A stretch of DNA of 63,991 bases, counting the filler, from Rozella allomycis CSF55 (taxonomy: Eukaryota), in the NCBI GenBank assembly GCA_000442015.1. It is 14 parts of 14 records of this genome, joined end to end, with 100 filler letters (N's around TTAATTAATTAA, not from the genome) between each part and the next. Parts side by side here need not be neighbours in the genome. Positions count along the whole stretch, not along the records: positions 30,056 to 49,396 come from KE560506.1; 13 more parts are not named here. One strand, 5' to 3'. Under the pieces are notes generated by a model. That model was not told the DNA's origin. It saw only the letters and a list, made by a program, of their open reading frames with translations, and searched no databases. This document shows positions 35,451 through 36,962 of the stretch, piece after piece. A program made the translations under genes and the position numbers. Position 1 is the stretch's first letter, and each line of letters begins with the position of its first letter.

Positions 35451-36962
35451 CTAGTTTTGTTTGATGACGCGCAGTATTTGAGATAAATTCTGATATTGGG
35501 ATCCAATTTCGCGAACTTCAGACTCTTTTAACGGTATTTTAGTTAATTTAGTTTCTAAAAATTGATGCTGTACAATAAGATTAGTCAAAAACGGGTCAAT
35601 ACTTTGGTTTGTCTCGATTTTTGAATCGGTCAGCCTTTCCAAGTGCGTATAAACATCTTTCCCTGCATTTGTTCTCGAAGATATGACGTCATTGAAAATG
35701 AAACTGTCTAAATTTAAAAGTGGAATATCATTTGGAATGAACTTGCGGTGGATTTGATTAACCTACCTCGTACTAAGGGATTTATTTTACATAATTATTG
35801 ACATCAGGGGCTTTATGGTTTGGCTTTATTGTATTTTCGTCCATTTGTTGAATTTGAGCCTTTTCCTGTACTTTATTATGTATTCGTTCTAACATGTCAA
35901 ACATCACAGATCTATTTTGCGCTGAAGTTATAAAAGGATGCTATTTAAACAAATCTTTTATAATACCTCCAAAAGCTGCCTTGCGTTGGGTCTATTCTCA
36001 GGGTTCTTATCCAAACACGTTGTCAGGAACGAATTAAATTGCTCGGACCTAAACAGGTGAACTTTATAACATTACCACTTGCTGGAATCTTTTAAAGTTG
36101 GGGGAGGATTTTCGACAATCTTTAATAAAACCTTCATAGGATTTTGTTTAGCGTGAGGGGGATAAAGTTCGGCCATCTCAATCGCAGTTATAGCTAAACT
36201 CCAGATGTCACTTTTCCCATCATAGTCTTTCTCTTGAATAACATTAAAACGAAATTAATGTGCCTACCTTCTGGTGCCATCCAGTAGGGTGTTCCTATCG
36301 TAATTTTTAGAATTAATTACCCACAAATGTATTTCGTTTTGCAATAGTTCCCTCAAGTCGAGCAGAAACACCAAAGTCGGCTAATTTTATTATATCGGAG
36401 AATTTATACCAATTTTTATGTCGCCCTTTCCGTTCACGAGAAGATTCCCACACTTTACATCTCTATGTATAAGATTTGACTCGTGCAAATAAGACAAACC
36501 CAAGTTTTATGTCAAAGATTGGTGGTTACTTTTAAAGTTTCGCGGCAAACATAAGATATTTGCGGTTCAGACAATGCACGATTCAATTTGTTAGTCATGT
36601 CTCGTATAGAGCCCATTGAACAAAATTCCATTACAATCTTTGTTTTAAAATATTGATTGAATACCCACAGGTCACTTGATTTTAGGAAAGAGCCCATATA
36701 TTTAACAATATTTGCATGCTTGCATTCAAGCAAGATTTTAATTTCTTTGCTAAGGTTTGCGATTTCATTATCATTATTGCCAATTGAAATTATTTTCACT
36801 GCAACAAATTCATTTCGTCTTTTCACTTTGCCTTTGTACACTTTTAATATTTGGGCGCATTGATTTACCTTCTCCATATGATCCTTTTCCCAATTTTTCT
36901 TCTAATTCAATAAATTCTAAAGGATCTTCCTTGGACAAGTGGCCGATAATTCTGCTTGACAT
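35451..36962 (-). CDS. STE20/GCK-family Ser/Thr kinase
   Basis: [45 protein letters not shown]; 9 introns, two of them apparently GT-TG. Confidence 0.93.

Follow-up and report, generated by a model that had tools for sequence, protein, structure and literature searches.

The STE20/GCK-group protein kinase gene of Rozella allomycis contains two ultrashort introns that start with GT and appear to end with TG, and the excision of exactly 36529-36501 and 36267-36242 on the minus strand is, as far as the sequence can tell, the only route to an intact STE20-type kinase core. Two further introns of this kind in a Taspase-1-like gene, and one candidate in a third gene, were found in the same window, by which we mean the whole stretch of 63,991 nt, filler included, that was analysed. 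We consider it probable that these are real U2-type ultrashort introns, the 3′ end of which would be defined mainly by distance and by a final G, while position -2 could also be occupied by U. TG would then be the sole productive acceptor of about 4-5 introns per 100 in the window.

The kinase gene and its two probable GT..TG introns

The kinase gene lies on the minus strand at positions 35451-36962 (ATG at 36962, TAG at 35453-35451) and was modelled with 10 exons encoding 421 aa. Its nine very short introns comprise seven GTA..AG introns of 26-29 nt and two GTA..TG introns, and the removal of all nine gives one open kinase reading frame of 421 aa. The canonical introns are located, from the 5′ end of the gene, at 36841-36868 (28 nt), 36638-36664 (27 nt), 36381-36409 (29 nt), 36295-36320 (26 nt), 36049-36075 (27 nt), 35941-35966 (26 nt) and 35763-35790 (28 nt, the last intron). 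Its exons are all free of stops and frameshifts, and the VAVK, HRD, DFG and APE motifs are intact. The Pkinase family (PF00069) of Pfam was matched by exon 4 (E-value of 4.8e-8, profile positions 110-139) and by exon 7 (2.2e-4), and the closest solved structures are those of the STE20 kinases SLK, STK10, STK24/MST4 and STK4/3. The Pkinase domain with its HRD, DFG and APE motifs and the STE20 kinases as nearest solved relatives place the protein in the STE20/GCK group. Since the C-terminal exon gave no SARAH domain in Pfam at E-values up to 1, we do not call this kinase a Hippo/MST orthologue.

Intron 1 (36501-36529, minus strand, 29 nt, phase 0) has its donor GT at 36529/36528 and its TG at 36502/36501 in the assembled sequence, ends in ..CTTG and joins ETLK to GLSYLHE. 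Intron 2 (36242-36267, minus strand, 26 nt, phase 1) has its GT at 36267/36266 and its TG at 36243/36242, ends in ..AATG and joins MAPE to VIQE, with the V codon split between the two exons. Both had been proposed in a sequence-only reading of this DNA, and their coordinates, lengths and ends can be read directly on the minus strand. That reading had also stated that retention of either intron would break the frame, which is what we found: intron 1 leads to a TGA after 5 codons, and intron 2 to a frameshift with a stop after 24 codons. It was likewise right that both lengths match those of the canonical introns, as 88 of the 98 local GT..AG introns measure 26-30 nt. Its view of the AG alternatives was borne out for intron 1, where the next in-frame AG (50-nt end) deletes GLSYLHE, but for intron 2 it had missed the AG at 36234/36233, which gives an in-frame 35-nt end at the cost of VIQ; this end loses on both homology and length.

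The two joints were located by translating single exons from the window, searching them against solved structures and comparing the residue numbers within the same chain. In SLK (8bem_A and 4usf_A), residues 1-35 of exon 3 correspond to residues 90-124 of the chain and residues 2-30 of exon 4 to residues 127-155, which puts the end of exon 3 at 125 and the start of exon 4 at 126; joint 1 is therefore exact, with no residue missing or extra. In PAK3 (6fd3_A), the E of the APE motif carries number 188, while in the next exon the third residue is 192 and the first full codon (I) is 190, which leaves 189 for the V of the split codon and makes joint 2 exact as well. The numbering of PAK1 (4zlo_A) and PAK2 (9lbg_A) gave the same outcome for joint 2.

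A metagenome scan with the public kinase returned 80 loci, all of them about 26-51% identical overall and none of them a close relative. We kept the 32 loci in which one uninterrupted tblastn segment matched our model from residue ≤40 to residue ≥250, and dropped the remaining 48 as split or partial. Eight in-frame 3′ ends were compared at each kinase joint. In all 32 environmental STE20 homologues and at both joints, the TG end outscored the seven other in-frame ends. Against these homologues the AG ends of joint 1 had means of -44 (50 nt, at 36480) and -75 (77 nt, at 36453), and the AG end of joint 2 at 35 nt had a mean of -22; the first of these ends costs the protein GLSYLHE, the second the HRD loop and the third VIQ. 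The earlier claim that the TG ends are obligatory is thus strengthened by the structure numbering, by Pfam and by 32/32 homologues, and holds to the extent that protein conservation, which is the basis of all three, can carry it. Among the DNA contigs from four runs, a 1-nt insertion after 36518, inside intron 1, was present in part of runs X1 and X2 and in all of X6; such an indel polymorphism fits non-coding sequence under either the TG or the AG model.

The Taspase-1-like gene and a fifth candidate

The second gene with apparent TG acceptors is a Taspase-1-like Ntn hydrolase gene (Asparaginase_2) on the minus strand at 61756-62896, the 3′ end of which runs into an N gap at 61723-61754. PF01112 was matched by three of its exons (best Pfam E-value 1.5e-9) and human taspase 1 chains were matched with an E-value of 7e-4, whereas exon A had no match among solved structures. 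The PF01112 domain and the D-T autoprocessing site, which the TG model contains and the public model lacks, assign the gene to the Taspase-1/Asparaginase_2 family. None of its exons contains a stop or a frameshift.

Intron 3 (62708-62734, minus strand, 27 nt, phase 0), which rests on Pfam positions and homologues, joins YLE to NSELTNAG and has its TG at 62709/62708 in the assembled sequence. Its joint is contiguous in the Asparaginase_2 profile, where exon A ends at position 55 and residue 2 of exon B is at 57. Intron 4 (62317-62346, minus strand, 30 nt, phase 1, TG at 62318/62317), placed by homologues, joins ELFT to ENST. The test set consisted of 149 family representatives, which are the 153 proteins of a search with the public model minus four Rozella models. 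The TG end of intron 3 beat each of 10 other ends in 148-149 of the 149 homologues. For intron 4 the TG end had the best mean of 12 ends and beat each alternative in 103-144 of the 149, the alternatives winning in 4-37, and the exact end is less certain here because the joint falls in a variable linker. An in-frame AG is lacking for both of these introns: in intron 3 the AG at 19 nt leads to a stop and the AG at 32 nt to a frameshift, and the first AG of intron 4, at 46 nt, is out of frame. The whole TG model outscored the public taspase model in 149/149 homologues.

A candidate fifth intron (10083-10111, plus strand, 29 nt) in a coiled-coil gene was proposed from reading-frame continuity; a 32-nt end at this site is also a TG, and the gene that holds it did not match any Pfam family.

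The window and its intron population

The assembly sequence in the window has about 34% G+C, about one gene per 1.7 kb and introns of about 28 nt. The sequence-only reading had taken animals as its frame of comparison, which does not apply here, the host being the fungus R. allomycis, as identified by identical public proteins. Dicyema, myxozoans, ciliates and Blastocystis had been weighed as hosts and were discarded on the names of these proteins. Published values for this cryptomycote include 34% GC and 497-535 genes per Mb, with fungal intron medians down to 29 bp (in the relevant part of PMC8042348), S23 introns of about 30 nt (from a passage of PMC6349667) and a density of 2.5 introns per kb (from a passage of PMC8476143). 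The G+C content, gene density and intron length of the window agree with these cryptomycote figures. Rfam and tRNA scans of the whole window returned no matches.

The sequence is interrupted at 1091-1190, 3686-3785, 5658-5757 and 11 further places by joins, each made of 44 N, TTAATTAATTAA and 44 N, which is a six-frame stop linker. The window is consequently a set of joined contigs and not a true scaffold, and gene order across the joins is no evidence of linkage. The DNA contigs of runs X5 and X6 pass over 316 nt at 33254-33571, next to the N at 33570, and a plus-strand gene chain is broken at 33529|33594; the probable cause is a duplication in the assembly or an allele with an indel.

As a reference for introns we used a codon-usage chain model that was trained inside the window and allowed GT..AG introns only. 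It contains 98 AG introns, none of which exceeds 35 nt. In the 84 cleanest of them the median length is 27.5 nt and position -3 is T in 66%, A in 20%, C in 9% and G in 3%; a weak A-rich stretch is seen at -7 to -4. All 84 start with GTA, partly by construction, as the scoring favoured GTA. The five TG introns, candidate included, all start with GTA too (GTAACC, GTAGGC, GTAAAT, GTAATA and GTACGA for introns 1 to 5), with lengths of 29, 26, 27, 30 and 29 nt, and their -3 bases (T, A, T, T and A) match the canonical preference for T or A. They have the GT 5′ end, the length class and the frame restoration of U2-type introns, with TG in the place of the 3′ AG. U12-type introns have an extended 5′ consensus, RTATCCTT, together with a strict branch site. 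The 5′ ends of the TG introns do not show that extended consensus.

No frame-keeping AG is found at 24-32 nt in any of the five TG introns, the sole AG in this span being that at 32 nt in intron 3, which is out of frame. An internal AG is passed over when it lies too close to the 5′ end, as does the AG at 19 nt in 62734-62708. In the reference model, the chains of recognisable genes are interrupted in the kinase and at three further sites, and each interruption is bridged by a GTA..TG segment of 26-30 nt. With four introns and one candidate against about 98 GT..AG introns, TG would account for roughly 4-5% of the acceptors in this window. The nearest AG downstream of the TG is at 21, 9, 5, 16 and 23 nt in introns 1 to 5, which is as expected by chance in AT-rich coding sequence. 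Apart from the candidate, the TG sites come in pairs, one pair in each of two genes, a distribution that sits oddly with a property spread evenly over the genome.

Several other tests did not single out TG. When the ORF chains were run again with AG and one other end allowed, TG was used 7 times, against 9 times each for AA and TT; ends that lie 3 nt apart are interchangeable in this test, and the exact ends were therefore taken from homology. Exonic GTA..AG pairs at 26-30 nt are mildly depleted (61/1176, or 0.76 times the control rate of 0.068), so that 61 such pseudo-introns persist in the exons, while GTA..TG pairs at the same distance are not depleted (83/1176, a ratio of 1.03), which gives no sign of TG being a generally competent acceptor. 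Across the 35,126 nt of modelled exons, GTA occurs less often in the sense orientation than in the antisense one (257 against 387 times). Near their 3′ end the TG introns look similar to the weak A-rich stretch of the canonical introns, but their context scores are low: when the last two bases are masked, four of the five score within the bottom 10-17% of the canonical introns, and 21-31 of the 83 exonic GTA..TG pseudo-introns score as high as those four. Only 62734-62708 scores high among the TG introns, on a score that is itself weakly discriminating.

A few other features of the coding chains were observed. Two 26-nt introns on the minus strand, at 11473-11498 and 11217-11242, have identical flanks and near-identical sequences and lie 256 nt apart, a pattern suggestive of a recent duplication, internal or tandem, within the gene. 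On the plus strand, the intron-like GTA..AG units at 60022-60052 and 60127-60156 have the flanks ggaatc and ggacgc in common at a distance of 105 nt, and constitute a repeated exon-intron unit. An 18-nt break with no GT donor nearby separates two coding chains at 29332-29350 (minus strand), and the chain model is also broken at 54539|54564.

Public gene models

The public kinase models are EPZ36629.1 (320 aa; NCBI name Rozella allomycis kinase), which was the one longer protein retrieved with exon 2 as the query, and RKP19893.1, the latter from a second assembly. All the residues that EPZ36629.1 has in common with our 421-aa model are identical. Both public models use GT-AG introns only, with introns of 77 and 35 nt in place of the two TG introns. 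The 320-aa protein lacks VYKGK, a 16-residue block with the HRD catalytic loop, the VIQ after APE and a conserved W, and its C-terminus differs from that of the 421-aa model; each of these segments was lost because a more distant AG or a different donor was chosen. Since exon 4 by itself matches Pkinase, the stretch that the public model takes as intron encodes the catalytic loop in frame. At 36841-36883 (minus strand) the public kinase has a 43-nt intron in place of the 28-nt one, and VYKGK is lost from the glycine-loop strand; at 36049-36078 (minus strand) it uses a GTGGTA donor in place of GTAATG, and the conserved W is lost.

The public taspase models are EPZ36612.1 and RKP17746.1. A 45-nt intron and a longer one are used at the TG sites, which removes 7 residues at the first site and 31 at the second, the D-T nucleophile site among them. 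The 26-nt GTA..AG intron at 61832-61857 (minus strand) is read through by the public taspase model; once this intron is spliced out, the C-terminus presumably resembles that of human taspase (HTT..M..G). The proteins of the two public assemblies differ by 1 and 3 residues and the aberrant models are shared, which is weak support for the T being present at the acceptors in both assemblies. Gene prediction limited to GT-AG thus leads to the choice of distant AGs and, in consequence, to the deletion of catalytic residues from the public models.

Alternative explanations

It could be argued that the public GT-AG-only models are right, that the next AG is used and that the conserved-looking segments are intronic relics. 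This would agree with the AG rule for U2 introns, with the existence of in-frame AGs for both kinase introns and with the adoption of AG sites by two public annotations, but we find it scarcely credible, given that the products would be devoid of the HRD catalytic loop, of the VIQ after APE and of the segment with the taspase Thr nucleophile, that the skipped DNA encodes such motifs in frame (exon 4 alone matching Pkinase at 4.8e-8), and that introns of 45-77 nt or more would be needed in a local population where 0 of 98 exceed 35 nt. The TG models are moreover favoured by 32/32 kinase and 149/149 taspase homologues, and the same public models carry other evident errors (the loss of VYKGK and W, and the read-through of 61857-61832). 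A consensus error or a second allele, with a true A at -2 on at least one haplotype, is very unlikely as well. The window is a draft assembly of joined contigs, and the runs differ from it at about 1-2% of sites with two haplotypes visible; however, the same A-to-T change would be needed at 4-5 independent acceptors, the same model structure occurs in the public proteins of two assemblies, and the exons around the TG sites are identical to the public record. The two-and-two clustering in two genes, together with gene loss in parasites, could also suggest that both genes are decaying pseudogenes of a reduced parasite which were disabled by acceptor mutations. We regard this as hardly tenable, since their exons are free of lesions, with the kinase motifs and the DT nucleophile site of the taspase intact, and random decay would not strike position -2 of acceptors alone, each time changing A to T, and leave some 2.2 kb of coding sequence untouched.

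A different case is that of TG sites which are weak, regulated acceptors, used in part of the transcripts while the rest are retained or mis-spliced and degraded. The low context scores of 4/5 TG introns, the fact that TG decoys in exons are not avoided, and the tissue-specific ratios given by human TG sites in the part of PMC2374985 that deals with them would all be compatible with it. We give this possibility clearly less than even weight, and treat it as a refinement that is already counted within the probability of our preferred explanation, namely that the TG introns are real. Against that explanation stands a human-style dependence of TG on a nearby AG, which may exist, the AGs being 5-23 nt downstream.

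Proposed mechanism and comparison with known systems

The introns of R. allomycis carry little signal: they start with GTA, measure 26-30 nt, are weakly enriched in A from -7 to -4 and have T or A at -3, just ahead of the AG. Under the explanation we prefer, the 3′ cut would be placed mainly by the distance from the 5′ splice site and the branch region, with a terminal G required and A strongly preferred at -2, and U at that position would be accepted when no AG lies within the permitted 24-32 nt. Early recognition of AG by U2AF35 would not be needed, a step that we infer from human work and for which budding yeast offers a parallel, which would leave the choice of the 3′ site entirely to the second catalytic step. 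Whether such a ruler with a terminal G has replaced early AG recognition throughout, making UG a constitutive acceptor genome-wide in Rozella, is a proposition to which we would give about an even chance.

Budding yeast is not known to have U2AF35 or first-step AG recognition by it, and its 3′ splice-site mutants, e.g. UUG, can be rescued by second-step alleles of prp8. As in our proposal, U at -2 becomes usable at the second step when proofreading is relaxed; yet the yeast UUG sites are laboratory mutants that splice poorly, whereas the TG sites in Rozella seem to have arisen naturally and to be fixed. In Oikopleura/Fritillaria and in Euglena, many introns depart from the GT-AG rule, but these vary mostly at the 5′ end or use a structure-based mechanism, while in Rozella only position -2 of the acceptor would be concerned. 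Ultrashort introns are also found in Paramecium and Stentor.

The closest natural parallel on the acceptor side is that of the human TG-AG tandem acceptors, which were reported in 36 genes, or about 0.01% of candidate TGs (Szafranski et al. 2007, PMC2374985). They are, like the Rozella TG introns, U2-type with a GT 5′ end and cut after TG, and both share the -3 preference of AG sites and an AG within 28 nt. However, as far as the relevant part of that study goes, the human TG always competes with an AG that is used as well and in no case serves by itself, with the AG lying within 28 nt, and human AG-to-TG mutants activate other AGs. In Rozella the TG would be the only end that gives an intact protein, it occurs about 4-5 times per 100 introns, and the introns are 26-30 nt long; there are AGs 5-23 nt downstream, as in a human-type tandem, but their use would delete catalytic residues or shift the frame. 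According to the conclusion of the human study, in that same part, the requirement for AG is imposed early and a TG can be selected only later, and TG as a sole acceptor would therefore suggest that the early AG check is dispensable here.

Regarding length, the ultrashort introns of myxobolid myxozoans and Dicyema japonicum offer a close comparison, and only AG 3′ ends are reported for them in the section of PMC13644364 on which we draw. They resemble those of Rozella in being shorter than 30 nt, with GTA as the 5′ signal, a terminal dinucleotide as the 3′ signal and A-rich bases upstream of it, and differ, going by the same section, in that only AG is used, the annotation having been made by GT-AG-aware predictors (PMC13644364). 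Introns of about 30 nt in this fungus are mentioned in passing in portions of two reports (PMC6349667, PMC8042348). A survey of fungal annotations gives 98.7% GT-AG, and GT-TG is not mentioned in the portion of it that we cite (10.1101/616565). No description of GT-TG introns in Rozella was found in the literature searched, although the supplementary tables of PMC13393502 and PMC13644364 might list curated exceptions. RNA-seq data of R. allomycis are acknowledged in PMC13393502.

Significance

In introns of the major spliceosome, no other signal comes as close to being invariant as the terminal AG. If UG were indeed a constitutive acceptor genome-wide, several hundred introns of Rozella, at 4-5%, would end in UG, and a comparable share of the public Rozella models would lack real exon sequence. 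Were TG the only productive acceptor for several per cent of the introns of a natural genome, that genome would offer direct access to the way in which the second catalytic step picks its site in introns too short to carry the usual signals. The public models of at least the kinase and the taspase-like gene are without catalytic residues as a result of AG-only predictors. Rozella models are widely used to root microsporidian and fungal evolution, and where comparative studies have relied on such models to claim that genes or domains were lost in Cryptomycota and Microsporidia, those claims may be affected.
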